Virus genome (UHGV): UHGV-0374782 | DNA from: a virus | DNA length: 10,384 nt | Direction: 5' to 3' (one strand) | Shown here: in pieces, positions 1 to 10,290 of the stretch | How the letters are laid out: each line of letters begins with the position of its first letter | Numbering within the stretch: position 1 is the first letter of the stretch | Notes under the pieces: model-generated | The model's database searches: none | The model's input: the letters and a program-made list of their open reading frames with translations, nothing else | What the model was told of the DNA's origin: nothing | Program-made: the position numbers and the translations under genes

Positions 1-1812
1 GCTGATGCCAATGGCAAAATGCGCCCAAAGGAAACTGTGTTACTGGATTTGTACAAGGCCACGCAGAAATACGGGCAGGTTGATCAGGTTTCATTCTTTA
101 AAAACATTGCCGGTGAAGAAGCCTTTGTGGGTTTGCAAACACTGGTACAGGCGGCGGGTTCTGGTGAACTGCAAAAGCTGACAAAAGAACTTCAGGGGGC
201 AGCCGGTGAATCAGCGATCGTTGCAAAAAAAATGGCTGACAACCTGGGTGGTGACCTGAAAGAGCTCGACAGCGCCTGGGAAGCGTTCCGCATTCAGGTC
301 GAAGAACTCGCAGACGGTGCATTACGCAAATTAACTCAGGCATTAAGTGGCACTATCGGGGTTATGACAGAGTGGGCGCATAACAACCCCCAACTTTCAA
401 AAGCACTGCTGGTGACACTCGGAAGCACCCTGGCACTGACCGCCGGAATTGGCGCAACCTCCCTGGCGGTGGGCCTGCTGCTGGGGCCGCTGGCAAAGTT
501 ACAGCTTGGCTTTACCCTGTTAACCAGTGCAAGCGGGCTGGGTGGTGCGATCCCTCTGTTTACCCGTCTCGGTAGTGTGATTACCGGGCCGCTTGGCAGT
601 ATCCGCGGCTGGGGCCAGGCGTTCAGCATGATGGCAGGAAGCACCGGAAAACTCACTGCCGTATTAACGCCATTGCGCGGGATGATGGCGGCAGCGTTTA
701 TTTCACCAGGGGCGGCGCTCAGTGGTCTGGTTAAGGGTATTGGCGGCTTACTTCTCAGGCTGACCGGTATCCCTGCCATTATGGGAATAGCGTCATCAGC
801 GCTTAGCGCATTAGGCGGCGCGCTCTCTTTGCTGTTAAGTCCAATCGGCTTGATTGGCGCGGCATTTATCGCAACAGGGTTGCTGATCTGGCGATTCTGG
901 GAACCCATTAAGGCATTTTTTGCAGGCTTCTTTTCCGGGGTTATGCAGGCGCTGACGCCATTCCGGGATGCTTTCGCGGGTCTGGCCCCCGTTTTTGGGG
1001 TGATCGCTAATGCCGTCTCGCAGTTGTGGCAGTGGTTTAGCAATCTGCTGACCCCCGTGAACGCCAGTAAAGAGACGCTGGATAAATGCGCCAGCGCCGG
1101 GGAGACATTCGGCAGGGTCTTTGGCCTCGCCATTCAGGGGCTCATGTTACCTCTGACCGGGCTGGCCAAGATGGTTGGCTGGATTCTGGAAAAGCTGGGG
1201 CTGATACCCTCAGGAATCGACGCGGCAAAAGCGAAAGCGGAGAAAGTCCAGAAGGAATTAACACCGGCAGGGCTGGCATTACTTCAGGACAAAGTAAGTG
1301 CACTGACCGGAGATATTAAAGCCGCAAGCCAGCCTGTTGCAGCGCCGCCGTCACCCGTCATTGCAACTGAAACAGGAACCCAGCGCCGCCTGCAAAAAAT
1401 TGCTGACAACACCGGCGGGATGCTGGATGAAACCAAAAAGCAGCGGATTGGCCCCGGTGATATCGTGTTTAAAAACCTGCCCCAGGCACTCGCCGTTCAT
1501 GGTGCATGGCAGGAAGCACGATCAACGCCCGGAGCGAACCTGGCGCAACTTGGCGCACGAACAGTGATTGCAGCAGCATCCGCACCAATCAAACCACCGG
1601 TAACAGCACCGGCAGTGGGGCAACCTGGCAGGGCTGAACGAAGCTCCCAGGCGAAAACCGCCGCACCATTTGGGGAAATGCATGTTCATGTACACCTTCA
1701 CGGTAATTTCACGGATAACGCACGCGATATTGCCCGCGCAGCCGCTGACGCAGTACAGGCGGAATTTGATAAACGTTTCCGCTCACGTAGCAGCTTCAGT
1801 GACAACGATTAA
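1..1812 (+). CDS. Phage tail tape measure protein (P2 gpT-like), 5'-partial; the frame is open from base 1, so the gene starts upstream of the window
   Basis: About 600-codon ORF with no in-frame stop from base 1 (the ATG at 19 is internal). Long Gly/Ala/Leu-rich hydrophobic central stretches and coiled-coil-like ends are typical of tape measure proteins. It is followed 11 nt downstream by a gpU-like gene, as in the P2 FI-FII-E-T-U-D operon. Stop TAA at 1810..1812. Confidence 0.85.
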   Translation, partial: ADANGKMRPKETVLLDLYKATQKYGQVDQVSFFKNIAGEEAFVGLQTLVQAAGSGELQKLTKELQGAAGESAIVAKKMADNLGGDLKELDSAWEAFRIQVEELADGALRKLTQALSGTIGVMTEWAHNNPQLSKALLVTLGSTLALTAGIGATSLAVGLLLGPLAKLQLGFTLLTSASGLGGAIPLFTRLGSVITGPLGSIRGWGQAFSMMAGSTGKLTAVLTPLRGMMAAAFISPGAALSGLVKGIGGLLLRLTGIPAIMGIASSALSALGGALSLLLSPIGLIGAAFIATGLLIWRFWEPIKAFFAGFFSGVMQALTPFRDAFAGLAPVFGVIANAVSQLWQWFSNLLTPVNASKETLDKCASAGETFGRVFGLAIQGLMLPLTGLAKMVGWILEKLGLIPSGIDAAKAKAEKVQKELTPAGLALLQDKVSALTGDIKAASQPVAAPPSPVIATETGTQRRLQKIADNTGGMLDETKKQRIGPGDIVFKNLPQALAVHGAWQEARSTPGANLAQLGARTVIAAASAPIKPPVTAPAVGQPGRAERSSQAKTAAPFGEMHVHVHLHGNFTDNARDIARAAADAVQAEFDKRFRSRSSFSDND

Positions 1813-1823
1813 AGAGGATTGAA

Positions 1824-2312
1824 ATGATGATGGTTTACGGAATGTTCGTCTTTGAATTGAAGACCGTTCCACACCAACAAATGCAACAGTCAAAAACCTG
1901 GCGGCATGTGAAAAATGAGCGCATTAACCGTTCAGCAAAATGGCAGTACATTGGCGCTGGCGATGATCAGATCACGCTTTCCGGCGTGCTGTATCCTCAG
2001 ATTACCGGTGGCAAGGTTAGCCTTGCTGTACTGGATACGCAGGCATACACCGGACGGCCCTGGCCCCTGATTAGCGGCACAGGGCAGATCTTCGGGATGT
2101 ATGCCCTTACCCAGCTACAGACCACGCATACTGAATTCGACCGGTATGGAGAGGCAAAGAAAATAGAATTTACTATTACCTTCCAGCGAGAAGATGAAGA
2201 CCTCAGAGAAAGCCTTCAGTCATCATCCGTGGGGGATTTACTTAACAACCTACAGAGTACCGCCAAATCAGCGTATAACAGCGTGAGCGCCGCCACATCA
2301 AGCCTGTTTTAA
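1824..2312 (+). CDS. Phage tail protein U (P2 gpU-like)
   Basis: 162-aa ORF starting MMMVYGMFVFELKTVP..., recalled similarity to P2 gpU. Shine-Dalgarno AGAGGA lies 7 nt upstream of the ATG at 1824. It directly follows the tape measure stop, consistent with translational coupling. Confidence 0.85.
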   Translation: MMMVYGMFVFELKTVPHQQMQQSKTWRHVKNERINRSAKWQYIGAGDDQITLSGVLYPQITGGKVSLAVLDTQAYTGRPWPLISGTGQIFGMYALTQLQTTHTEFDRYGEAKKIEFTITFQREDEDLRESLQSSSVGDLLNNLQSTAKSAYNSVSAATSSLF

Positions 2313-2324
2313 CCGTTGACCAAT

Positions 2325-2354
2325 GCCGCGCCACCAGGTGCGGCTTTTATTTTT
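2325..2354 (+). terminator. Rho-independent terminator of the T-U transcription unit
   Basis: GCCGCGCC-ACCA-GGTGCGGC hairpin (8-bp GC-rich stem with one G-U pair, 4-nt loop) followed by TTTTATTTTT, 13 nt after the U stop. On the opposite strand there is no U-run after the hairpin, so it is unidirectional. Confidence 0.7.
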
Positions 2355-2391
2355 CAGCGTTCCGCAACTGAATCTTCTGGCTGCACCAGGG

Positions 2392-2945
2392 CTAATATTT
2401 ACCGGCGGGGATTTTTTTGTATAAGGTCGATATCCCAACATCATAAATAATCGCCACACGCCGCCGTGATTCTCCTGCCGCTAACAATCTTTCTGCCTGC
2501 GCCCATTGCTCCGGGGTTAATTTTGGTTTTCTGCCGCCGATCCTGCCCTCTGCACGCGCCGCAGACAATCCCGCCCTGGTGCGTTCGACAATCAACTCTC
2601 GCTCCATTTCAGCCAGTGCGCCCATGACGTGAAAGAAAAAACGCCCCATTGGCGAAGACGTATCTATGCTGTCAGTCAGGCTGCGAAAGTTAATCTCCCT
2701 TTCCCGCAGTTCCTCCACTAAAACGACAAGATGCCGCATGCTGCGACCGAGGCGATCCAGTTCCAGACCACAAGAGTATCGCCCTCTGACAAGGTTCGGA
2801 GCAGCCTTTTAAGCCCTGGTCTGTCTGATGTTTTACCGCTGATTTTGTCTTCAAAAATAAGCTCACATCCTGCGCACTCCAGTGCATTTCGCTGTAATGC
2901 GGTGTTCTGGTCATTTGTTGATACACGCACATAGCCGATAAGCAT
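2392..2945 (-). pseudogene. pin: Serine DNA invertase (Hin/Gin/Cin/Pin family), interrupted by a 1-nt frameshift
   Basis: Two adjacent minus-strand ORFs (2718..2945 and 2392..2739) together cover a full-length invertase. The N-terminal part has MLIGYVRVSTNDQNT...GDTLVVW with the catalytic Ser in VRVS. The C-terminal part has SLTDSIDTSSPMGRFFFHVMGALAEMERELIVERT and a C-terminal HTH. The frames rejoin if one nucleotide is restored in the sense sequence GTGGTCTGGAA-CTGGATCGCCTCGGTCGC (plus coords about 2760..2765), which would read W-K-L-D-R-L-G-R as in intact family members. The symbol is a family-level assignment. Confidence 0.85.
2846..2926. promoter_or_regulatory. Putative Fis-dependent recombinational enhancer inside the 5' coding region of the invertase gene
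   Basis: In hin, gin and cin the enhancer lies within the first ~100 bp of the invertase ORF, over codons for ...STxDQNxxLQRNAL.... The equivalent codons here (VSTNDQNTALQRNALECAGCE) map to about 2846..2926. This is positional inference only; individual Fis sites were not resolved. Confidence 0.3.
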
Positions 2946-2968
2946 GATAAATAGCCCTGTAAAAAGCC

Positions 2969-3550
2969 GTGATCATGCCATCCGAACGGAATAACTGCAT
3001 TTTCCAAAAGGTTGGTTTGGGAGAAGGCTCTGCATTACCGGTTGGGGTGCCTGTTCCGTGGCCTTCAGCCACTCCGCCAACAGGCTGGCTGAAATGCAAT
3101 GGTGCGGCTTTTTCTGCTGAAGAATACCCGGAACTGGCAAAGGCTTACCCGACCAATAAATTGCCTGATTTACGCGGTGAATTTATTCGTGGCTGGGATG
3201 ATGGACGTGGAGTGGATGCGGGGCGAGCCTTGCTAAGTCTTCAGGATGACTCTTTTGAAGCTCACAGACATGAGTCCTTTTTTTACGCGGGTATTTCACG
3301 CAATGAAACACCATTAAAAAATCTTCCAAGTTCAGACGAGATGCTGACTTTAAGTTCCACAACTAATGCCTTGTCCCCGGACAGTATTGATGCCACCAAT
3401 TCGTTAATTGGTAATGATGATTACAACTGTCTGATTGAAGGAAATAAAAATAACAAACGAACGGCAACGGGGTTGAGTACCAGTATTGTCGGTGCAGCAG
3501 AGACACGCCCACGTAATATTTCATTTAATTACATTGTGAGGGCTGCATGA
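2969..3550 (+). CDS. Alternative tail-fibre C-terminal cassette (Mu Sv'/P1 Sv'-like), silent in the present orientation
   Basis: The ORF reads through the crossover site in the same frame as the tail fibre gene (…FQKVGLGE|GSALPVGVPVPWP…). It carries the tail-collar motif PWP…PxGWLKCNG…YPELAKAYP…LPDLRGEFIRGWDDGRG and ends …NISFNYIVRAA, like Mu S / P1 S C-termini. The ATG at 2969 is unlikely to be a real start; only codons from about 3014 would be fused to the fibre constant region after inversion. Confidence 0.75.
   Translation: MIMPSERNNCIFQKVGLGEGSALPVGVPVPWPSATPPTGWLKCNGAAFSAEEYPELAKAYPTNKLPDLRGEFIRGWDDGRGVDAGRALLSLQDDSFEAHRHESFFYAGISRNETPLKNLPSSDEMLTLSSTTNALSPDSIDATNSLIGNDDYNCLIEGNKNNKRTATGLSTSIVGAAETRPRNISFNYIVRAA
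3000..3025. other. Invertase crossover site (gix/pix/hix-like), left boundary of the invertible segment
   Basis: 26-bp imperfect palindrome TTTTCCAAAAGG-TT-GGTTTGGGAGAA. The right half-site fits the family consensus GGTTTnnGAGAA exactly, and it is in inverted orientation relative to the site at 4638..4663. Confidence 0.8.
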
Positions 3551-4155
3551 TGTATAACGCTATCTTAAATAATAAATTTATTGCCACAAAGGCAGGAGAG
3601 GTTACCGTTTATAACTATGACAGTGAGACACGGGAGTATATTTCTGCATCAATTGAATATCTTGCTGTGGGTGTCGGTATCCCCGCATATTCCTGTTTAG
3701 ATGCTCCTGGCACACATAAGGCTGGTTATGCAATCTGCCGTTCTGCAGATTTTAACTCATGGGAATATGTGCCAGACCATCGCGGTGAAATCGTCTTTAG
3801 CACCGAAACAGGAGAATCAAAAGAAATCACAGCTCCGGGTGATTACCCTGATAATACAACCACTATCGCCCCGTTAACACCATACGATAAATGGGATGGT
3901 GAGAAATGGGTGACGGATACCGATGCACAGCATAGCGCCGCAGTAGATGCAGCAGAAGCACAACGCCTGTCGCTGATTGATACTGCAATGGCTTCCATCA
4001 GTCTGATTCAACTGAAATTACAGGCCGGACGGAATCTGACGCAGGCAGAAACCAGCCGACTTAACACGGTGCTGGATTACATTGACGCGGTGACGGCAAC
4101 AGATACCAGCACCGCGCCTGATATTATTTGGCCTGTATTCCCTGAGACTGATTAA
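3547..4155 (+). CDS. Tail fibre assembly protein (Tfa / Mu U'-like chaperone) for the alternative fibre tip
   Basis: 202-aa ORF overlapping the upstream cassette stop by ATGA. The C-terminal motif …LNTVLDYIDAVTATDTSTAPDIIWPVFPE is characteristic of the Tfa/gpG/U chaperone family. Confidence 0.85.
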   Translation: MMYNAILNNKFIATKAGEVTVYNYDSETREYISASIEYLAVGVGIPAYSCLDAPGTHKAGYAICRSADFNSWEYVPDHRGEIVFSTETGESKEITAPGDYPDNTTTIAPLTPYDKWDGEKWVTDTDAQHSAAVDAAEAQRLSLIDTAMASISLIQLKLQAGRNLTQAETSRLNTVLDYIDAVTATDTSTAPDIIWPVFPETD

Positions 4156-4384
4156 CCTCAATTAGTATTGGTTCGCCTTTCTCATTAATTGTTAGCTCCA
4201 TGCCCTGAGGAATTTCTGTCATAGTAAAAAACCAGTTGTCCTCCGGTAATTCAATAGCCCCGGTCACGTCATGAAGACCGGGGATTACTTCAGTCAAAGT
4301 AACTGGATTAAACAGGCGCACAATAAACCCTCCAGGAAAAAGCATTTGATGATGGTCTGCCGTCGTACATCTGGCAGCGGGCAT
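4124..4384 (-). CDS. Hypothetical small ORF downstream of the expressed fibre tip; the start is uncertain (candidate ATGs at 4345, 4222, 4201) and it may not be a gene
   Basis: 86-codon ORF whose 5' end overlaps the fibre gene's 3' end in another frame and whose 3' end overlaps the 3' end of the convergent Tfa gene by 32 nt. No convincing Shine-Dalgarno precedes any internal ATG. It has no Tfa-like C-terminal motif. It occupies the position where Mu or P1 would carry the second chaperone gene. Confidence 0.2.
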   Translation of the reverse strand: MPAARCTTADHHQMLFPGGFIVRLFNPVTLTEVIPGLHDVTGAIELPEDNWFFTMTEIPQGMELTINEKGEPILIEVNQSQGIQAK

Positions 4385-5699
4385 AAAAGCCGGTATTTGT
4401 TAACTGATCATCCACGATCATTGAAACGTGAACATTATTAGGTGTGCTCTCGTAATCCGTTCTTATTCTTTCCGCGATACTGATAAAACGTGAAAGTTTA
4501 GGCAGTGCAATTGGGTAAACAACTTTAGCCAGTCCATTATCATTAGATCCACCGGTTCCAAATACTTCTATTGCACCATCTGACCAGCGTATCCATGCAC
4601 CATTGGCATTAGCTCCTCGCTGAATGACATATCTGGCTTCTCCCAAACCAAGGTATTGGAGAAGGCCTGAAACACTTTTCCCACTGAGGTCGGTCAGTGT
4701 GGCATCCAGTGGTTGTTTACCTGCCAGTGCATTTGTGATTGTCGTGGCGAAGTTAGGGTCATTACCCAATGCGGCCGCCAGTTCATTTAACGTATCCAGT
4801 GCCTCCGGCGACGAGCCGACCAGCCCGGCAACCGCTGCTTTCACAAATGCCGTGGTAGCAATCTGCGTATTATTCACCGTCTGCGCAGCCGTCGGAGCCG
4901 TCGGCGTTCCGGTCAGGGCCGGGCTTGCCAGTGGTGCTTTCAGCGCCAACGCATTGTTAATAGTGGTGCTGAAATTTGGGTCATTGTTGATAGCCACAGC
5001 AATTTCTTTCAGCGTATCCAGCGTTGCCGGTGCTCCGCCGATCAGGGTAAGAATCGCCGCCTGCACAAAAGCAGTACTGGCAATCTGCGTGGTGTTATTC
5101 CCTGCCGGTGCCGTTGGTGTTTTTGGCGTTCCGGTAAGTGACGGGCTTTCCTTCGGTGCATATTGCTTATGCGGATCTGCCGCCGAAAGGTGAGAGTCCA
5201 TCAGCTTAGTTGCATAACTCTTAACCTCAAGCACTGCCACATCAACATACTGACGCGTTGCGAGTACCACAGACGGATCAATCTTCAGGGTAACTGCGTC
5301 CGTGCTCGATACAGTTAGAAGCATCCTGATAACCTGAGTTCGGCCCGATCCCTCATCTGTTGTCGCCTTGTATGTTTCCGGGCAGTTAGCAACAGCAATC
5401 AAATCACCATCAGCATCAAAAAGCCCGATTTCGCGAATCCACCAACCACCGGCAGATTCAGGAATAATTTGTTCTGCAATAATCTGGCTGTCGTTGTTTT
5501 TATCGACTGACAGGGAATTAAGCTGGGCGCGGCGCACCTCGTTAACCAGCTTCGTTTGAGCCTGGTTAGGGGTTGGCGATACACCGCCGCCATCACCTAC
5601 CGCGAGTGAAGTGATATTCAGCTTTTCACCCAGCGCCGCCATGTTTGATAATTTTGCTGCCCCCACATTAGTCAGCAGGGCAAAGTATTTAAGCGCCAT
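4308..5699 (-). CDS. Tail fibre protein (P2 gpH-like); constant region about aa 1-350, variable tip about aa 355-463 lying inside the invertible segment
   Basis: The N-terminus (…AVGDGGG…, …IRMLLTVSS…) resembles P2 gpH / Mu S N-terminal baseplate-attachment domains. The shaft has two about 74-aa repeats (LTGTP…NNTQIA.TAFV…LDTL.E.A.A..NDPNF.TTI.NALA.K). The C-terminal tip (…GAWIRWSDGAIEVFGT…VVYPIALP…TGFYARCQ…FSWRVY…) looks like a complete distal receptor-binding domain, but of a different class from the silent cassette. The start overlaps the upstream gpI-like gene end. Confidence 0.9.
   Translation of the reverse strand: MALKYFALLTNVGAAKLSNMAALGEKLNITSLAVGDGGGVSPTPNQAQTKLVNEVRRAQLNSLSVDKNNDSQIIAEQIIPESAGGWWIREIGLFDADGDLIAVANCPETYKATTDEGSGRTQVIRMLLTVSSTDAVTLKIDPSVVLATRQYVDVAVLEVKSYATKLMDSHLSAADPHKQYAPKESPSLTGTPKTPTAPAGNNTTQIASTAFVQAAILTLIGGAPATLDTLKEIAVAINNDPNFSTTINNALALKAPLASPALTGTPTAPTAAQTVNNTQIATTAFVKAAVAGLVGSSPEALDTLNELAAALGNDPNFATTITNALAGKQPLDATLTDLSGKSVSGLLQYLGLGEARYVIQRGANANGAWIRWSDGAIEVFGTGGSNDNGLAKVVYPIALPKLSRFISIAERIRTDYESTPNNVHVSMIVDDQLTNTGFYARCQMYDGRPSSNAFSWRVYCAPV
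4638..4663. other. Invertase crossover site (gix/pix/hix-like), right boundary of the invertible segment
   Basis: Plus strand TTCTCCCAAACCAAGGTATTGGAGAA; its reverse complement is TTCTCCAATACC-TT-GGTTTGGGAGAA. It shares 23 of 27 positions with the 3000..3025 site and the same central TT dinucleotide. Confidence 0.8.
4700..5145. repeat. Intragenic tandem direct repeat, two units with a 222-bp period, encoding the tail-fibre shaft repeats
   Basis: Anchors repeat at a 222-bp offset: gggtcatt at 4756 and 4978, cgtatccag at 4791 and 5013, gcaatctgcgt at 4858 and 5080. The units are imperfect (very roughly 70% identical by eye). Boundaries are approximate. Confidence 0.6.
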
Positions 5700-6303
5700 T
5701 TGTTACCTCTAACGTATCAATAATATGTATTGCTCCCCCAGGGAAATAACCGCCGCTTACTTCCACTGCTTCCGGCATATAGGGGTAAATTGTCATCACG
5801 TCGCCGCCATAGCACCCGGCGTGAGCGTAAAGCTTTCCCTCCACCTGCAAATTAATGGCAAGGCCGGTAAGGTGACGTGAGCACGGTTTTGCATCAGCGA
5901 TCAGGCGCTCAAGCTCACGATAGGTCTCCTCAGTAATTCCTGATTCAGAAACACCGATTTCAAGCTGAAATGTCCCTGGCTCACCGCCGGTCTGCCACCA
6001 CTCGATCACCTTTATCAGGAAGCCGAACGGCTCCACTACATGGCGTAGCGCCGCGATGGTTCCCTTCTGACGATGTACCACCCAGGCTGATTTGATCACC
6101 TGGCGTTTCGTTTGCTCTGACCAGTTCTTATCCCAGCGATCAACAGACAGCGCCCACGCCAGATAAGGCAGGAGGGCAACCGGGCATTCATCGGGATTCC
6201 ACAGCTTGCGCAAATCTACCGGAATATCTGTTATGCGCTGCGTACCCGCCTCTGCACGACGCATGAAATCGCTGGCTGAAGGAGGTAACAGACTTTTATT
6301 CAT
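5689..6303 (-). CDS. Baseplate / tail protein I (P2 gpI-like)
   Basis: Contains …LWNPDECPVALLPYLAWALSVDRWD…HRQKGTIAALRHVVEPFGFLIKVIEWW…ERLIADAKPCSRHL…, recalled similarity to P2 gpI. The preferred start is the ATG at 6303 (MNKSLLPP…), preceded by GAGGGGGA and overlapping the J stop in ATGAATAA. The longest ORF would extend to 6357, which would overlap the J-like gene by 60 nt and is less likely. Confidence 0.85.
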   Translation of the reverse strand: MNKSLLPPSASDFMRRAEAGTQRITDIPVDLRKLWNPDECPVALLPYLAWALSVDRWDKNWSEQTKRQVIKSAWVVHRQKGTIAALRHVVEPFGFLIKVIEWWQTGGEPGTFQLEIGVSESGITEETYRELERLIADAKPCSRHLTGLAINLQVEGKLYAHAGCYGGDVMTIYPYMPEAVEVSGGYFPGGAIHIIDTLEVTNGA

Positions 6304-7192
6304 CTGTTCCCCCTCTGGTGATTGTGACGGAGGTACAGCGCGCCGCCTGGGTATCACTGATCACCACATTGTTGATCGGCGACTGAACCTCCACGCGCTG
6401 CACACCCTGGACGTGTAACGCTGCCATGATTGCTGACAACGCAACATCACGACCAATACCTCCCTGCCCTGCCAGCCAGGATTGCAACGCCTTTTCAGCC
6501 GCATCAGCGATGGGCTCAGATTCCGGCCCCGGATAAAAGTAAAGGGTGGCGCTAATGTCGTAGTTAATGATCTCCGCGCTCTGTACGGTCAACCGGTCGC
6601 CAACCGGGCGCACGCTCTCATCCGATAACGCCGCGTTTACGGTGGTGATTAGCTCTGCTGAAGCCGTACCATCACCTTCTGAGGACAGTATCGATACAAT
6701 AACCTCGGCAGGTGCCGGGCTTGACGCTTTGGCGTCTGCCACCTTGCCAGAAGCGCTTTTTGCAAAATACTCATAAGCGGCGGTTGGCCCGGCAACACTC
6801 AGCCCTTCAAATGCCGCCTGAGCGCGCAAACGTAACTTTGAATCGCTTTCCATTACGGCACCTGTTGTATCGGTCGCCTCAGTAATGGTTAGTCTTTTGG
6901 TGTTGTTATTCGCCGCCAGGTTATCCAGATCCGTTGATGTGGCATGGCTTAACATGCACGCAGCAGCACCGTCATTTATGGCCTGCCGTAACATTAATTC
7001 ACGGTATGCCACCACCTGAGCGATCACATTTAGTGGCTCTGATTCAAGTTCCATCGCTGCCGCAATCGCGCTTTGCTTCTCTTTTGGGTAGGCCGAAATC
7101 ATCATCGCTTTCACTTCGCTCAAAATAACTTCGTAATCCAGCGTGGCGATCACTTCCGGTGGTGGCAGTTCCGATAAATCAATAGTTGCCAT
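6296..7192 (-). CDS. Baseplate assembly protein J (P2 gpJ-like)
   Basis: 298 aa with …LESEPL…YREL…RQ…, …RLTIT…, …AFEGLSVAG…Y…, …VRPV.DRLTVQSA…, …LY.YPGPESEPI…, …GRD..LSAI.AALHV.GVQRVE… matching the P2 gpJ pattern. It sits between the W-like and I-like genes as in P2. Confidence 0.9.
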   Translation of the reverse strand: MATIDLSELPPPEVIATLDYEVILSEVKAMMISAYPKEKQSAIAAAMELESEPLNVIAQVVAYRELMLRQAINDGAAACMLSHATSTDLDNLAANNNTKRLTITEATDTTGAVMESDSKLRLRAQAAFEGLSVAGPTAAYEYFAKSASGKVADAKASSPAPAEVIVSILSSEGDGTASAELITTVNAALSDESVRPVGDRLTVQSAEIINYDISATLYFYPGPESEPIADAAEKALQSWLAGQGGIGRDVALSAIMAALHVQGVQRVEVQSPINNVVISDTQAARCTSVTITRGGTDE

Positions 7193-7547
7193 TGTCCTGT
7201 TCCTTCAAAGTCACAGAGCCTGTCGCCGCCTGCATGGTGGTAGTGATCAGCCCGCTAAGTCCCACTGTCACCGCGCCGGACTCTGAAAAATTCACATCCA
7301 CCTGATTTAAAGCGATGCGCGGCTCCCACTGCGTTAAAGCAATCACCGTGGCGCTCATCAGTTGCAATCGTGTCGTTTCGTTCTGAGGCTCATCCAGCAA
7401 GTCAGGTAATAAACTGCCATACGTGCGGCGCATCACCCGCGACCCCAGCGGTGTTAACAGGACATCTTTCACCGACTGCCAGAGGTGATCACTGTCGGAA
7501 AGCGTTCCTGTTCCGGCCTGATTCATGCCCGTATATTTCGCTGTCAT
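7179..7547 (-). CDS. Baseplate assembly protein W (P2 gpW / gp25-like)
   Basis: 122 aa starting MTAKYTGMN… with …PLGSRVMRR.YGSLL…L.D.PQ…, recalled similarity to P2 gpW. ATGA overlap with the V stop. Confidence 0.85.
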   Translation of the reverse strand: MTAKYTGMNQAGTGTLSDSDHLWQSVKDVLLTPLGSRVMRRTYGSLLPDLLDEPQNETTRLQLMSATVIALTQWEPRIALNQVDVNFSESGAVTVGLSGLITTTMQAATGSVTLKEQDNGNY

Positions 7548-8125
7548 TGCGTCCCCTTCGTCCAGCTACCACCAGGTTGAACAGCGCCATGAGTATGTTC
7601 ATCAACCCGTACACCGTTTGAGGTAAGCGCGCCGCCGGTGTGTGTGACGCCGCCAGTCATCTTCCCACCCTCAGTGAAATCAAAGGTTTTTGCCTTCAGA
7701 TGGCTGGTACACTCCACCACCGCTGTATCAAGCGTGATTTTTGTCTCGGCCTGAATCGTTGCCGTTTTCATGCCGCTTGCGGTCAACGCGCTAACCTCTG
7801 CGTCATATTCGAATCTGGCCCCGTCAGGCGCTGTAACCACCATCTGTTTCAGGCTGGCAGAGGGGGCGTCATTTTCATTGCTGTACAGACTCCCCAGCAA
7901 AACCGCCGTTTCCGGGTTGCCACCGATACAGCCCAATAACACCTGCTCACCCCGCGACGGCGGACACCAAATCTTAAAATCACCGGCACGGCCTGTTTTC
8001 CAGCGAAGCCAGGTTGTTTTCAGTTCGCCGCTCTGTACGCGCACGCTTTTACCGTCTTCCGATATTTCCGCGACAATACCCACACGCAGCACGTTTTCCA
8101 GGAGTCTCATCAGTTCGGCGCTCAT
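7544..8125 (-). CDS. Baseplate spike/hub protein V (P2 gpV-like)
   Basis: 193 aa with an N-terminal …GIV.E…RV..G….T.WL.W…RAG… region and a C-terminal …THTGG.L.SNG…H.H… motif, as in P2 gpV. ATGA overlap with the S stop. Confidence 0.85.
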   Translation of the reverse strand: MSAELMRLLENVLRVGIVAEISEDGKSVRVQSGELKTTWLRWKTGRAGDFKIWCPPSRGEQVLLGCIGGNPETAVLLGSLYSNENDAPSASLKQMVVTAPDGARFEYDAEVSALTASGMKTATIQAETKITLDTAVVECTSHLKAKTFDFTEGGKMTGGVTHTGGALTSNGVRVDEHTHGAVQPGGSWTKGTQ

Positions 8126-8760
8126 TTCCCCGCACTCCCCAGACTGTTGATCACTGCACTACGGATCAGTGCCTCATCCGCTTTGGAAATTCCCAGCAAT
8201 ACGCGGGGGGCATATTTGGCGAAAGCACCGGGCCCAATCTGCTCACGTAAACCGTCCTGATGAATACGTGCAATACGCGCCGCCATACCACTAAAACCAA
8301 CCTCAGCACCTTCAGATGTCGCTTTCATCTTCATAAAGCGGGATGTGCGCAGCTTCACGAACATTGGCGCTTTGACGGTTCTGGGCGTCTGACCCGCCCG
8401 TGTATTAATCTCGGTATAGCGTTCAATGTCAGCCCGATAAAACGTGCGCACTTCATTCCTGTCTTCATCAAATCCGGTGATGGTTCGCCCGTACTTACCG
8501 CGTCCGCTGTGCCAGTTTTTCAGTCGTCGCAACTGACCTTCCCAGATGAAGGAGATCCCCTGCTGCGTGCGTAATTTTTTACGGCGTCGCGCCGGGTACT
8601 GGCTCCCGTCCGGATTACGTTGTGCGCGTATACGCTGCTGTTGGCTGATGCGCAGCATCTTCCCAACTTCACGCGCCGTCCTGGCTCGCCCGGTAGGTGA
8701 CACCCCCGCCAGGATGTCAGAGAAATACTGATCCAGTGTGTGAATACCTTCGGCACTCAT
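8122..8760 (-). CDS. Phage virion morphogenesis / tail completion protein S-like
   Basis: 212-aa basic protein in the position of P2 gpS, between R and V, with ATGA overlaps on both sides. The family call is from position and general resemblance to virion-morphogenesis (P2 S / Mu G) proteins. It is longer than P2 gpS (150 aa). Confidence 0.7.
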   Translation of the reverse strand: MSAEGIHTLDQYFSDILAGVSPTGRARTAREVGKMLRISQQQRIRAQRNPDGSQYPARRRKKLRTQQGISFIWEGQLRRLKNWHSGRGKYGRTITGFDEDRNEVRTFYRADIERYTEINTRAGQTPRTVKAPMFVKLRTSRFMKMKATSEGAEVGFSGMAARIARIHQDGLREQIGPGAFAKYAPRVLLGISKADEALIRSAVINSLGSAGK

Positions 8761-9212
8761 AAGGGCGCACTCCAGGTAACGTCCTCAATAATTCCGCTCC
8801 ATTCCGGCTGTATACGTGGGCGAGGCTCTGGCTTGTGATCTGCCTTTAACGTGCCATCGTCATTGCGCGTTACGATCACACGCTCGCTGATGGGTAATTC
8901 GAAAAATAAATCCGCAGTGTCGTCGCTGTTGATCGCCGTGGTGAATTTAATCTCTTTGTTTTTTTCAGGATTCAGCAACAGTTGCGGTTGCTCCTGCCAC
9001 AGCCAGGCCATCAACGGAAGGGTAAAATCATCCAGATCACCGGCAAAATTCATCACAAACAGACACAGCGTATAGGCATAAACAAAATCAGCCGTTTCGC
9101 CGGTCGTCTCCACATGCCCGGACTCAATGAACACACTGAAGGCTTCAGGGTTTGCCTTGCACCACTGGTTCGAACGGGTGAGCGCATCGCGCAGGGAGTT
9201 AATTTTCAGCAT
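8757..9212 (-). CDS. Tail completion protein R (P2 gpR-like)
   Basis: 151 aa starting MLKINSLRDALT…, recalled N-terminal similarity to P2 gpR (MLKPDSLRRALT…). It lies immediately downstream of the lysis genes and upstream of S, as in P2. Confidence 0.8.
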   Translation of the reverse strand: MLKINSLRDALTRSNQWCKANPEAFSVFIESGHVETTGETADFVYAYTLCLFVMNFAGDLDDFTLPLMAWLWQEQPQLLLNPEKNKEIKFTTAINSDDTADLFFELPISERVIVTRNDDGTLKADHKPEPRPRIQPEWSGIIEDVTWSAPL

Positions 9213-9540
9213 GTTGCTTAACCTCTTTACCTTGCTGGCGCGCCAGGCGCTTCAGATTCAACTCACTGATCGCACGCTTGTCCGCGTTGCAGCTATCAAG
9301 CGCGTCATGTAACCGATCGGCGTAAATCGCGATTCCACCCCACGTGACCGGCGTTTTCAGTTCCGGTTCCGGGGTTTCATTAGTCAGGCTTTGCGGTACT
9401 GGTTCGTGAATCAGCCGGGTTTGCACTTTTATCTTTTCTGAGCAACCCATTACTGACAGCAACAGGCACAACAGCACCGGCACATTTATCAGTACGCATC
9501 GCCGTGGACATATTTTCACGCCTGGCTTCACCTTCACCAT
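9199..9540 (-). CDS. o-spanin (LysC/Rz1-like outer-membrane lipoprotein), overlapping the i-spanin gene in another frame
   Basis: Start ATG at 9540 preceded by AGGAG. Signal peptide MVKVKPGVKICPRRCVLINVPVLLCLLLSVMG followed by Cys (lipobox-like VMGC). The mature part is Pro-rich with a C-terminal Cys. The gene begins inside the i-spanin gene and runs past its end into the start of R, the classic P2 lysB/lysC overlapped architecture. Confidence 0.6.
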   Translation of the reverse strand: MVKVKPGVKICPRRCVLINVPVLLCLLLSVMGCSEKIKVQTRLIHEPVPQSLTNETPEPELKTPVTWGGIAIYADRLHDALDSCNADKRAISELNLKRLARQQGKEVKQHAEN

Positions 9541-9751
9541 TTCGCTCCTGTTCCGCTTTTCTGACATCTGCAAGCACCGCTTGCGCATCAGCCGTTAGCC
9601 CGCGCATTTCTGCGATCACTGCTTCACTTTCATCAAACATGCGCTGCAATTTTTCTTCGTTATCGTCTGCAATGGCGCCTGTGTATCCCCGGTAATAACC
9701 GGATGCATAACCACCAATGCTGATGACGAGTAACCACAAAAAAGTTTTCAC
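9380..9751 (-). CDS. i-spanin (LysB/Rz-like inner-membrane protein)
   Basis: 123 aa with an N-terminal transmembrane segment (FLWLLVISIGGYASGYY) then a charged, helical periplasmic domain. Apparent GTG start at 9751 with GGAGG 5 nt upstream; GTGA overlap with the endolysin stop. Confidence 0.6.
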   Translation of the reverse strand: MKTFLWLLVISIGGYASGYYRGYTGAIADDNEEKLQRMFDESEAVIAEMRGLTADAQAVLADVRKAEQERNGEGEARRENMSTAMRTDKCAGAVVPVAVSNGLLRKDKSANPADSRTSTAKPD

Positions 9752-10290
9752 CTGGCCTCCAGATCTCGCTTACACCACACCTGGAAATCAGTACGTCGAT
9801 TTACCAGGCCCTGCGACCGCTTACCGGCGCTGTTCACAAAATCGGTTAACCGGTCACACACGCCGCTCCAGTTGTGCGCCTGGGCGTTTTTCCAGATCGT
9901 GGTACGCTGCTTGCGTTTGTTCTTATCCGTGAACCACATCAGCCCCGAACACCCCACATTCAGCCCGGCATCAGCCATCGCCTCAAATACGGATTGCGGC
10001 ATCGCCTTACCATTGAAGTTCTGGTTTATGCAGTTCTCGGAATGCTGCATGTCATTTACCCAGCGGCGGGCCACCTCTGCATTGCTGTACTCGCGCTTCT
10101 GCACGTTGCCGGTTGAACCAATCCCCACGGTCAACACCCCGGCGGTACAGTAGTAAGGCGTGTTACGGCAATCTTCCCAGGACGCTATTTTTTGCTGTGC
10201 TTCAGGCGACGTCCGCAACACATCGGGCGACATCGACACCCCCAGGGCGACAATCAGCGCGACTGAGCAACGTTTAATAACCGCCTTCAT
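9748..10290 (-). CDS. SAR endolysin, GH24 lysozyme of the P1 Lyz type
   Basis: Preferred start ATG at 10290 (GGGGA upstream); the track's 10296 start is a TTG. The N-terminus has a weakly hydrophobic signal-anchor-release-like segment containing a Cys (KRCSVALIVALGVSM). The catalytic region is SWEDCRNTPYYCTAGVLTVGIGSTG: Glu, then Cys in the position of the T4 lysozyme catalytic Asp, then Thr, with an extra caging Cys two residues after the Glu. This matches the P1 Lyz arrangement. Confidence 0.85.
   Translation of the reverse strand: MKAVIKRCSVALIVALGVSMSPDVLRTSPEAQQKIASWEDCRNTPYYCTAGVLTVGIGSTGNVQKREYSNAEVARRWVNDMQHSENCINQNFNGKAMPQSVFEAMADAGLNVGCSGLMWFTDKNKRKQRTTIWKNAQAHNWSGVCDRLTDFVNSAGKRSQGLVNRRTDFQVWCKRDLEAR

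Follow-up and report, generated by a model that had tools for sequence, protein, structure and literature searches.

The order of the tail genes in the 10,384-nucleotide stretch of DNA analyzed here (the window) is real and ordinary, and it is the normal map of a P2-like branch that includes plaque-forming phages. Because this order is inherited in a large branch with plaque-forming phages, it is not the scar of a recent or invertase-driven rearrangement. The window belongs to an E. coli prophage at cyaR, flanked by yegQ and yegS. It very probably covers the tail and lysis genes of a P2-like (Peduoviridae) prophage that is defective but has the inherited, functional layout of its clade. The layout was 100% identical across three complete-genome records from two strains, and the strains carrying the remnant were 30EVA2 and JX21CE33. 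An assembly artefact was ruled out by the identity of these three records and by the presence of the same order in more than 110 independent loci.

The features of the window are listed in the table below, in which coordinates preceded by L001 refer to the larger locus around the window; the coding sequence of T begins 1166 nt ahead of the window. The gene order of the locus was ogr(-) D(-) / FI..U(+) / invertase(-) / invertible segment / H..O(-) / P, Q(+). Pfam matches above the gathering score were obtained for U, H, I, J, W, V, S, R, LysC, lysozyme, D and Ogr, which form a P2-family virion and lysis set. The part of T within the window (1-1812) had no Pfam match; the identity of T was 34% to gpT of P2 and 58% to the corresponding proteins of P88 and phiT5282H. 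The identity of gpU was 45% to U of P2, 76% to that of phiT5282H and 87% to that of ES1.

Table. Features of the window and of the D/FI region outside it.
Feature	Position	Strand	Evidence or remark
Tape measure T, C-terminal 604 codons	1..1812	+	RefSeq CDS L001 17834-20812, "phage tail tape measure protein"; full CDS 992 aa
gpU tail protein, final gene of inverted FI-to-U block	1824..2312	+	PF06995 Phage_P2_GpU, E = 7e-39
Intrinsic terminator of FI-to-U transcription unit	2325..2354	+	Stem and T run
Serine DNA invertase pseudogene, Pin/Gin/Cin type	2392..2945	-	Frameshift near 2760; RefSeq note "frameshifted"
Alternative fibre C-terminal segment, presently unexpressed orientation	2969..3550	+	PF07484 tail collar domain
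Crossover site A, 26 bp (TTTTCCAAAAGG TT GGTTTGGGAGAA)	3000..3025	.	Inverted repeat; half-site score 19.5
Tail-fibre assembly gene paired with alternative fibre end	3547..4155	+	PF02413 Caudo_TAP, E = 4e-31
Short ORF, 65 aa, downstream of H at expected fibre-chaperone place	4124..4321	-	RefSeq "hypothetical protein"
Tail fibre H, constant N-terminal part and variable end now joined	4308..5699	-	PF12571, E = 4e-61
Crossover site B, 26 bp, inside H (TTCTCCCAAACC AA GGTATTGGAGAA)	4638..4663	.	Inverted repeat; half-site score 20.5
gpI	5689..6303	-	PF09684; RefSeq CDS
gpJ baseplate protein	6296..7192	-	PF04865
gpW	7179..7547	-	PF04965
gpV spike	7544..8125	-	PF18715, PF04717, PF18946
gpS	8122..8760	-	PF05069
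gpR	8757..9212	-	PF06891
Lysis genes lysC, lysB (DUF2570), lysozyme	9199..10290	-	PF23793, PF00959; RefSeq CDSs
gpD	L001 14335-15453	-	PF05954; outside window, ogr adjoining
FI	L001 15622-16812	+	Divergent from D

A first-pass annotation of the window had placed T and U on the plus strand, ending in a strong terminator, and V-W-J-I-H and the lysis genes on the minus strand; the open reading frames and the Pfam matches agreed with this description. The terminator stem has 8 bp (2325-2344), of which 7 are G-C pairs, and is followed by TTTTATTTTT. Its fold energy was -21.9 kcal/mol (z = -4.97 relative to shuffled sequences), and none of 200 shuffles was as stable. The terminator was thus as strong as described but did not directly abut the stop codon of the invertase (2392-2394), given that approximately 37 nt separate this codon from the end of the T tract. 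The FI-to-U block lies on the strand opposite to that of V-to-H and is convergent on the fibre end. Transcription from FI to U would end at the terminator past U, which would shield the convergent invertase gene and the O-to-H operon.

Examination of the flanks, which the same annotation had proposed, revealed FI, FII, E, D, ogr and the capsid genes beyond the window. The annotation had noted that no gpD follows U, which holds within the window, but D was not lost: a missing gpD was ruled out by finding D and ogr upstream, outside the window. D lies 5.4 kb from U on the other strand; D and ogr have the same orientation as the O-to-H operon and are divergent from FI. The canonical order of P2 (Peduovirus), in which FI FII E E' T U D follow V W J I H G as one co-directional operon, was accordingly absent. 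The proposal of a P2-like lineage with an inverted F operon was borne out, except that the inversion relative to P2 is limited to FI-FII-E-E'-T-U and includes neither D nor ogr.

The same order, including an invertase convergent on U, was found in Escherichia phage P88 and in Citrobacter phage phiSM, both of which belong to Xuanwuvirus. P88 is mitomycin-inducible and plaque-forming, with a burst size of approximately 65 (PMC5285337), and phiSM is an active temperate phage (PMC6456863). The order was also found in phiT5282H (Novemvirus), in Klebsiella ST16-OXA48phi5.4 (Reipivirus) and in an intact-looking prophage of E. coli ES1, which has int, cox, A, portal and flanking direct repeats and does not have the invertase. 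It had been set out beforehand that intact, inducible relatives with exactly this order would make it a lineage feature, and the synteny comparison found such relatives. Xuanwuvirus, Novemvirus and Reipivirus are thus the named genera in which the inverted layout was seen. The proteins of the window were closer to those of clade members than to those of P2, with amino-acid identities of 75-91% to ES1, 58-78% to phiT5282H, 44-74% to P88 and 34-56% to P2.

Gene order followed the similarity of gpD. The inverted block was present in 34 of 34 informative genome loci from approximately 20 genera and in all 79 informative IMG/VR loci with a gpD at least 68% identical, whereas the P2 order was kept in all 73 informative loci with a gpD at least 77% identical to that of P2, and the distant phiCTX has the P2 order as well. 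We concluded that O-to-H rightward, a cargo or invertase slot, U-T-E'-E-FII-FI leftward and D-ogr rightward is the layout of a broad Enterobacterales clade of Peduoviridae. Parsimony on the sampled loci, rather than a rooted phylogeny, points to a single origin of this layout from the P2/phiCTX order, in which the FI-to-U block would have inverted together with its own promoter, with one breakpoint exactly between U and D.

The suspicion that the prophage might be defective proved correct. IS1 truncates the portal gene of the 30EVA2 copy, and with the deletion of the early region nothing is left of int, C, cox and A according to the RefSeq annotation, so that this copy does not possess the integrase, immunity, replication and portal genes of a complete inducible genome. 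It is a defective remnant of a member of the P88/phiT5282H-type clade, and its defects (IS1 in the portal gene, loss of the early region and the invertase frameshift) are unrelated to the gene order. The decay is clear, and in strain AMSCJX04 a sister copy has lost the stretch from the invertase to lysB, including the baseplate and fibre genes; both observations would speak for a recent inversion private to this prophage during its decay, with the order as the scar of a defective element. However, viable phages have the identical order, as do all 113 informative loci, from approximately 20 genera, whose gpD is like that of the window prophage. Further, the D/FI spacer has a conserved length and a conserved activator-type dyad, which are not expected at a fresh breakpoint. 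We regard such an inversion as extremely unlikely: a rearrangement of the prophage itself, as suggested in the first-pass annotation, was ruled out by P88 and phiSM, which are inducible or active and share the exact order with D located elsewhere.

The tail genes of the 30EVA2 copy (D, FI, FII, E, E', T, U, H, I, J, W, V, S, R and X) are annotated as intact, as are its lysis, capsid and terminase genes. The intact tail, lysis and ogr genes next to a truncated portal gene and a deleted early region might indicate that the remnant in 30EVA2 and JX21CE33 is kept as a tailocin-like element, with a convergent layout for tail-only expression. We consider this very doubtful. The copies are 100% identical between the strains, so their intactness may merely reflect recent decay; the capsid and terminase genes are still intact, and the AMSCJX04 copy lost baseplate and fibre genes instead. 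In addition, the fibre gene in its current orientation is followed by the 65-aa ORF only, with no recognizable chaperone, and the layout was inherited from whole phages.

Comparison with the P2 record confirmed that the invertase and the invertible segment fill the slot that G and Z/fun occupy in P2. The Resolvase (PF00239) and HTH_7 (PF02796) domains of the invertase are split over two ORFs. When the P88 invertase was used as a tblastn query, the match passed from frame -3 to frame -2 at residues 61-63. The frameshift was identical in all three genome records, and the reading frame is not intact. Crossover sites A and B are in inverted orientation, with cores TT and AA, and bound the alternative fibre ends. 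At the DNA level, the alternative fibre segment (2969-3550) was approximately 90% identical to stf/tfa cassettes from many phages. We asked whether the ORF that follows H (65-86 aa) is a truncated tail-fibre assembly gene, and found neither a Pfam match nor a blastp match to the plus-strand tfa. A single hint of such an origin was a 17-nt inverted repeat shared with the 5' region of tfa.

The invertase gene and its two 26-bp crossover sites adjoin the U end of the block, and the first-pass annotation had accordingly thought a large invertase-mediated inversion conceivable. If the serine invertase had inverted the FI-to-U block via secondary crossover sites, whether recently or in the ancestor of the clade, such sites would lie at the breakpoints. 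A half-site profile derived from sites A and B was run over 48 kb of L001 (99.9th percentile of the background, 12.25). Only sites A and B stood out, with site B scoring highest, and the additional crossover-like site proposed for the other breakpoint was not found above background. No crossover-like site lay at either breakpoint of the block, one of which is at the 3' end of the invertase gene and the other within the D/FI spacer; the best scores at these junctions were 11.75 (U/invertase) and 10.75 (D/FI), below 12.25, in contrast to 19.5-20.5 for the real sites. Further, some relatives with the same order do not have the invertase, and their slot holds an acyltransferase gene (ES1), a DUF262 gene (Reipivirus) or nothing (phiT5282H), while phages with the P2 order can also have an invertase in the same slot. 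Inversion of the block by the invertase is thus highly improbable. The Pin-type inversion switch just swaps fibre ends and had no role in the inversion of the block.

The inherited layout places D and FI divergently. Their spacer is 168 bp long and contains a dyad, GTTGT-N12-ACAAC, at L001 15527-15548 (TGT-N12-ACA at 15529-15546), the center of which is 84.5 nt from the start codon of D and also from that of FI. The dyad matches that of the O/P spacer. The strict form, TTGT-N12-ACAA, occurs just twice in the 22.7-kb prophage, in the D/FI and O/P spacers, which are its only two divergent late spacers. The dyad was at the same position in 32 of 38 D/FI spacers (reference and genome loci with divergent D and FI). 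Among 71 distinct spacers its left arm was at least 90% conserved, and the right arm reads AGA instead of ACA in many relatives. The prophage thus shows the clade trait of D-ogr divergent from FI across a spacer of approximately 160-170 bp with a central TGT-N12-A(C/G)A dyad. Two -10-like hexamers, AATCAT and AATTAT, are both 46 nt away from the center of the dyad. They are weak (four of six matches), and the D-side hexamer is partly conserved. They were read directly from the sequence: a sigma-70 consensus scan, which covered positions 1700-4600 of the window, does not suit Ogr-dependent promoters, which have no -35 element.

P2-type late promoters that depend on Ogr or Delta carry a partial dyad, TGT-N12-ACA, centered approximately 55 nt upstream of the transcription start. 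In the P2 record, one activator site serves the divergent PP and PO promoters, and transcription starts 55-56 nt on each side of its center. The placement of the D/FI dyad relative to the start codons resembles that of the PF and PP/PO sites of P2, which suggests that a single Ogr site in the spacer is shared by D and FI. The dyad-symmetric Ogr activator site of PF would now be mid-way in the 168-bp spacer and would drive late transcription both ways, from PF into FI-to-U and from a new promoter, PD, into D, in parallel with the site that serves both PP and PO in P2. We infer PD and the sharing of the Ogr site from the geometry of the sequence alone. By a narrow margin, we favor the possibility that, clade-wide, gpD is a separate fifth late unit that uses the Ogr site of PF as a bidirectional activator, 55 nt from each start, and that the whole late regulon runs on two shared Ogr sites (O/P and D/FI) without PV. 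If so, the classic P2 late-gene circuit would have been rewired in a way not described before, and this arrangement would cleanly mark the clade within Peduoviridae. The symmetric D/FI spacer offers a directly testable prediction on this rewiring.

The significance of the gene order itself is mostly one of annotation, with little beyond. T-U convergent on the fibre operon and the absence of D after U should not be taken as prophage damage or invertase scrambling. The inverted order is the standard map of P2-like phages of the Xuanwuvirus, Novemvirus and Reipivirus type, which are common in Enterobacterales, and offers an easy and robust means of telling this clade from P2, 186-like and phiCTX-type phages. 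We found no explicit account of the inverted order in the accessible literature on P88, Xuanwuvirus, Novemvirus, KSP20 and the xenorhabdicin xnp1 cluster; the branch is known in the sense that its genomes are deposited and classified by the ICTV.

The prophage shares with P88 and phiSM the order R S V W J I H, tfa / tfa', H' / invertase / U T E' E FII FI (opposite strand) / D, ogr. It differs from them in its GH24 lysozyme, where they have an M15 peptidase or GH108 endolysin, and in its fibre genes, and the amino-acid identity is only 44-74%. Further, the window copy does not have the early region, and its invertase is frameshifted. The closest named phage is Enterobacter phage phiT5282H (58-78% amino-acid identity): its FI-to-U block is likewise inverted, D-ogr diverges from FI, the D/FI spacer also measures 168 bp and has the dyad in the corresponding place, and the lysozyme is of the same type. 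In contrast, phiT5282H has neither invertase nor invertible segment, and its integration module and cargo are different.

The prophage resembles P2 in its structural, lysis and late-control genes, in having an activator of the Ogr type, in the activator-type dyad with its GTTGT left arm and N12 spacing and in a cargo hot spot past the fibre genes; its O/P dyad would correspond to the single site that serves PP and PO in P2. However, in P2, FI-FII-E-E'-T-U-D is one operon co-directional with V-to-G, and D overlaps U. Between S and V, P2 also carries orf30 and a PV promoter of its own; in the window, gpV overlaps S, which leaves no separate PV spacer. P2 does not have the invertase, and the amino-acid identity is 34-56%. 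The fibre switch resembles the Pin, Gin, Cin and Min switches (e14, Mu, P1 and p15B), in which an HTH_7 serine invertase adjoins a segment with 26-bp inverted crossover sites, one of them inside the fibre gene, and alternative fibre ends are accompanied by assembly genes. It is approximately 95% identical in DNA sequence to a locus annotated as pinE (H50), and it differs from these switches in that the invertase frame is broken and one of the two chaperone genes is absent or reduced to 65 aa.

The genes of the window were identified from an ORF listing and Pfam scans (see table), which agreed with the gene calls and strands of the first-pass annotation. The tape measure was 34% identical to P2 gpT. 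A strong terminator does follow U, as had been proposed (fold energy -21.9 kcal/mol, z = -4.97), but it does not directly abut the stop codon of the invertase gene, its T tract ending ~37 nt short. In the ORF listing, S and V overlapped, and thus the window has no P2-style PV spacer.

Features of the window and, where marked L001, of the window with its chromosomal flanks (a separate coordinate system)
Feature	Coordinates	Strand	Basis or remark
Tape-measure gene T, C-terminal 604 codons	1-1812	+	RefSeq annotation of full 992-aa CDS
gpU	1824-2312	+	PF06995, E = 7e-39
Intrinsic terminator after U	2325-2344 (stem) + T run	+	8-bp stem, 7 G-C pairs
Resolvase/HTH_7 invertase	2392-2945	-	frameshift near 2760
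Invertible segment, 1.6 kb	between invertase and H		26-bp inverted crossover sites, 3000-3025 and 4638-4663
Alternative fibre end	2969-3550	+	part of invertible segment
Tail-fibre assembly gene (tfa) of alternative fibre end	3547-4155	+	part of invertible segment
65-86-aa ORF	4124-4384	-	after H
Tail fibre H	4308-5699	-
I, J, W, V, S, R, lysC, lysB, GH24 lysozyme	beyond H, in that order	-
cyaR	L001 13424-13509		Rfam RF00112, 100.7 bits
TM2-domain gene	L001 13628-13924	-
ogr	L001 14048-14296	-
D/FI spacer, 168 bp	L001 15454-15621
-10-like hexamer AATCAT	L001 15494 to 15489		D side
Dyad GTTGT-N12-ACAAC	L001 15527-15548		perfect
-10-like hexamer AATTAT	L001 15581-15586		FI side
O/P spacer	L001 33138-33293

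E. coli strains 30EVA2 and JX21CE33 carry chromosomal DNA 100% identical to the window. When 19 kb of flanking sequence was added at either end (L001), the element proved to be a P2-like prophage inserted between yegQ and yegS, directly downstream of the sRNA gene cyaR. In K-12, this locus carries the cryptic P2 remnant PR-X (ogrK, yegZ; 4115-4821 of the K-12 locus L203), indicating that two different P2-like lineages use the yegQ-yegS site. The gene order in L001 was the TM2-domain gene, ogr and D (minus strand); FI, FII, E, E', T and U (plus); the invertase (minus), followed by the invertible segment; H, I, J, W, V, S, R, lysC, lysB, lysozyme, a holin-like gene, X, L, M, N and O (minus); and P and Q (plus), with Q cut by IS1. 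The TM2-domain gene, which encodes a zinc-ribbon membrane protein, sits between ogr and the prophage end that faces cyaR and is cargo at the lysogenic-conversion gene position. As first noted, gpD is not downstream of U, but it is not absent: gpD (PF05954) and Ogr (PF04606) were found in L001, with D divergently oriented upstream of FI. Relative to the P2 annotation, FI-to-U alone is inverted, and D and ogr retain the direction of the O-to-H operon.

The convergence of T-U on the fibre/baseplate operon had been attributed either to a lineage with an inverted F operon or to a rearranged prophage. We found this inverted F block, that is, FI to U on the strand opposite V to H, in a number of relatives. 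The ES1 prophage of E. coli, the proteins of which are 75-91% identical to those of the present prophage, possesses it at a different site (fieF/cpxP). That prophage is flanked by direct repeats and has a complete portal gene, along with integrase, immunity, cox, replication and dam genes. The inverted F block was also present in Escherichia phage P88 (Xuanwuvirus), with an invertase convergent on U, Citrobacter phage phiSM (Xuanwuvirus), Enterobacter phage phiT5282H (Novemvirus) and Klebsiella phage ST16-OXA48phi5.4 (Reipivirus). P88 is induced by mitomycin C and forms plaques, with a burst size of ~65 (PMC5285337), and phiSM is described as an active temperate phage (PMC6456863). Intact, inducible relatives thus share exactly this order, with D located elsewhere than after U.

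In a tblastn-based survey of related loci, counting the informative ones, the inverted F block was found in all 34 genome loci from ~20 genera of Enterobacterales and in all 79 IMG/VR loci with a gpD at least 68% identical to the present one. The P2 order was found in all 73 IMG/VR loci with a gpD at least 77% identical to that of P2. We concluded that the inverted F block is a lineage feature, common to phages, prophages and survey loci, and not a rearrangement of this prophage, because its relatives carry the identical order. This layout is the usual one of a known P2-like phage clade, already represented among deposited genomes, and the present prophage is a decayed, new member of that clade. 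Because the loci close to P2 and the distant Pseudomonas phage phiCTX hold the P2 order, the inverted F block is, by parsimony, predicted to be the derived state. A single surveyed locus, in Trabulsiella odontotermitis (L041), was rearranged further: H and I share the strand of U-to-FI there, and J is found past ogr. In the phiSM record OR565851 (L206 2294-4745), the annotation is shifted, with 'ogr' as the label of the gpD homologue and 'late control gene D protein' as that of the sheath gene, which could mislead synteny comparisons based on product names.

An invertase-mediated large inversion had been considered conceivable, and we scanned all 48 kb of L001 for further crossover-like sites using a half-site profile derived from the two genuine sites. 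Those two sites alone were recovered (scores 20.5 and 19.5). At the block junctions the scores were at background (10.75 in the D/FI spacer and 11.75 between U and the invertase; 99.9th percentile of background, 12.25), and invertase-free members of the clade, such as ES1, have the same order. Further, the invertase was on the strand opposite to U in 18 of 18 inverted-type loci carrying one and co-directional with U in 8 of 9 P2-order loci, suggesting that its orientation is fixed relative to the fibre operon and that the F block is the part that differs. A role of the invertase in the inversion is thus not supported. Members of the clade carry different cargo between the fibre genes and the end of U, a variable site comparable to the Z/fun hot spot in P2. 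ES1 has an acyltransferase there (L002 21132-22100), the Klebsiella Reipivirus a DUF262 protein and another gene (L207 8612-10515), and P88 (L004 26977-27564), phiSM and the window the invertase switch.

The present copy is defective, and gene order is not the cause. The portal gene (Q) is truncated by IS1 and everything beyond is lost, including the replication, immunity and integrase genes. The invertase frameshift is a further defect. The frameshift, of 1 nt, falls between residues 61 and 63 and breaks this Pin-type invertase into two ORFs, one of 75 aa (N-terminal) and one of 115 aa (C-terminal). All three genome records show the identical frameshift, which, if real, would leave the fibre switch stuck in the present orientation. 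In this orientation, the short ORF after H stands alone in the slot expected for a tail-fibre assembly gene, had no family match and is convergent with the plus-strand tfa, overlapping its 3' end by 32 nt, which suggests a deletion within the invertible segment. Strain AMSCJX04 carries, at the same locus, a 100% identical sister prophage (L003) that retains the early region, in which the integrase annotation overlaps an ISEc33 transposase gene. What it lacks is the whole stretch from the N-terminal part of the invertase to lysB. The deletion is clean (L003 22392-23085), joining the C-terminal part of the invertase to lysB and taking out S, R and lysC along with the fibre and baseplate genes. 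In the sister prophage, the same element has decayed independently.

The F operon of P2 ends with D, which overlaps U, whereas in the present prophage D is divergent from FI; because D lies outside the F operon, it would need its own promoter. The D/FI spacer contains a perfect dyad, the centre of which is 84.5 nt from the start codons of both D and FI. Two -10-like hexamers, read from the sequence, each lie 46 nt from this centre, placing both predicted transcription starts ~55 nt from it. Just two copies of the strict dyad TTGT-N12-ACAA are present in the 22.7-kb prophage (~0.35 expected by chance for 8 specified bases), one in D/FI and one in O/P, which are its only divergent late spacers, and their flanks are nearly identical (TTTTAGTTGTCAGA...CACAACC). 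Of the 38 reference and genome loci with divergent D and FI, 32 have a TGT-N12-A(C/G)A dyad in the corresponding place. Over 71 distinct spacers, the left arm and T-rich flank were at least 90% conserved and N12 was variable. In both divergent late spacers, a conserved G+C-rich stretch (CGCGCGCGGG or CCACGCGGGCGCGCG) separates the dyad from one of the -10-like regions, facing P in one spacer and D in the other.

The dyad and its placement point to a shared bidirectional Ogr-dependent D/FI promoter, a prediction that is the sole mildly new point of this analysis. The late genes would form four units expressed from two bidirectional Ogr sites, one driving P-Q and O-to-H and the other D and FI-to-U, and the terminator after U would keep FI-to-U transcription from extending antisense into the invertase and the fibre genes. 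The geometry of the D/FI spacer is the same as that annotated in the P2 record for the divergent promoters PP and PO, in which a single activator site centred at 3072 serves starts at 3016 and 3127.
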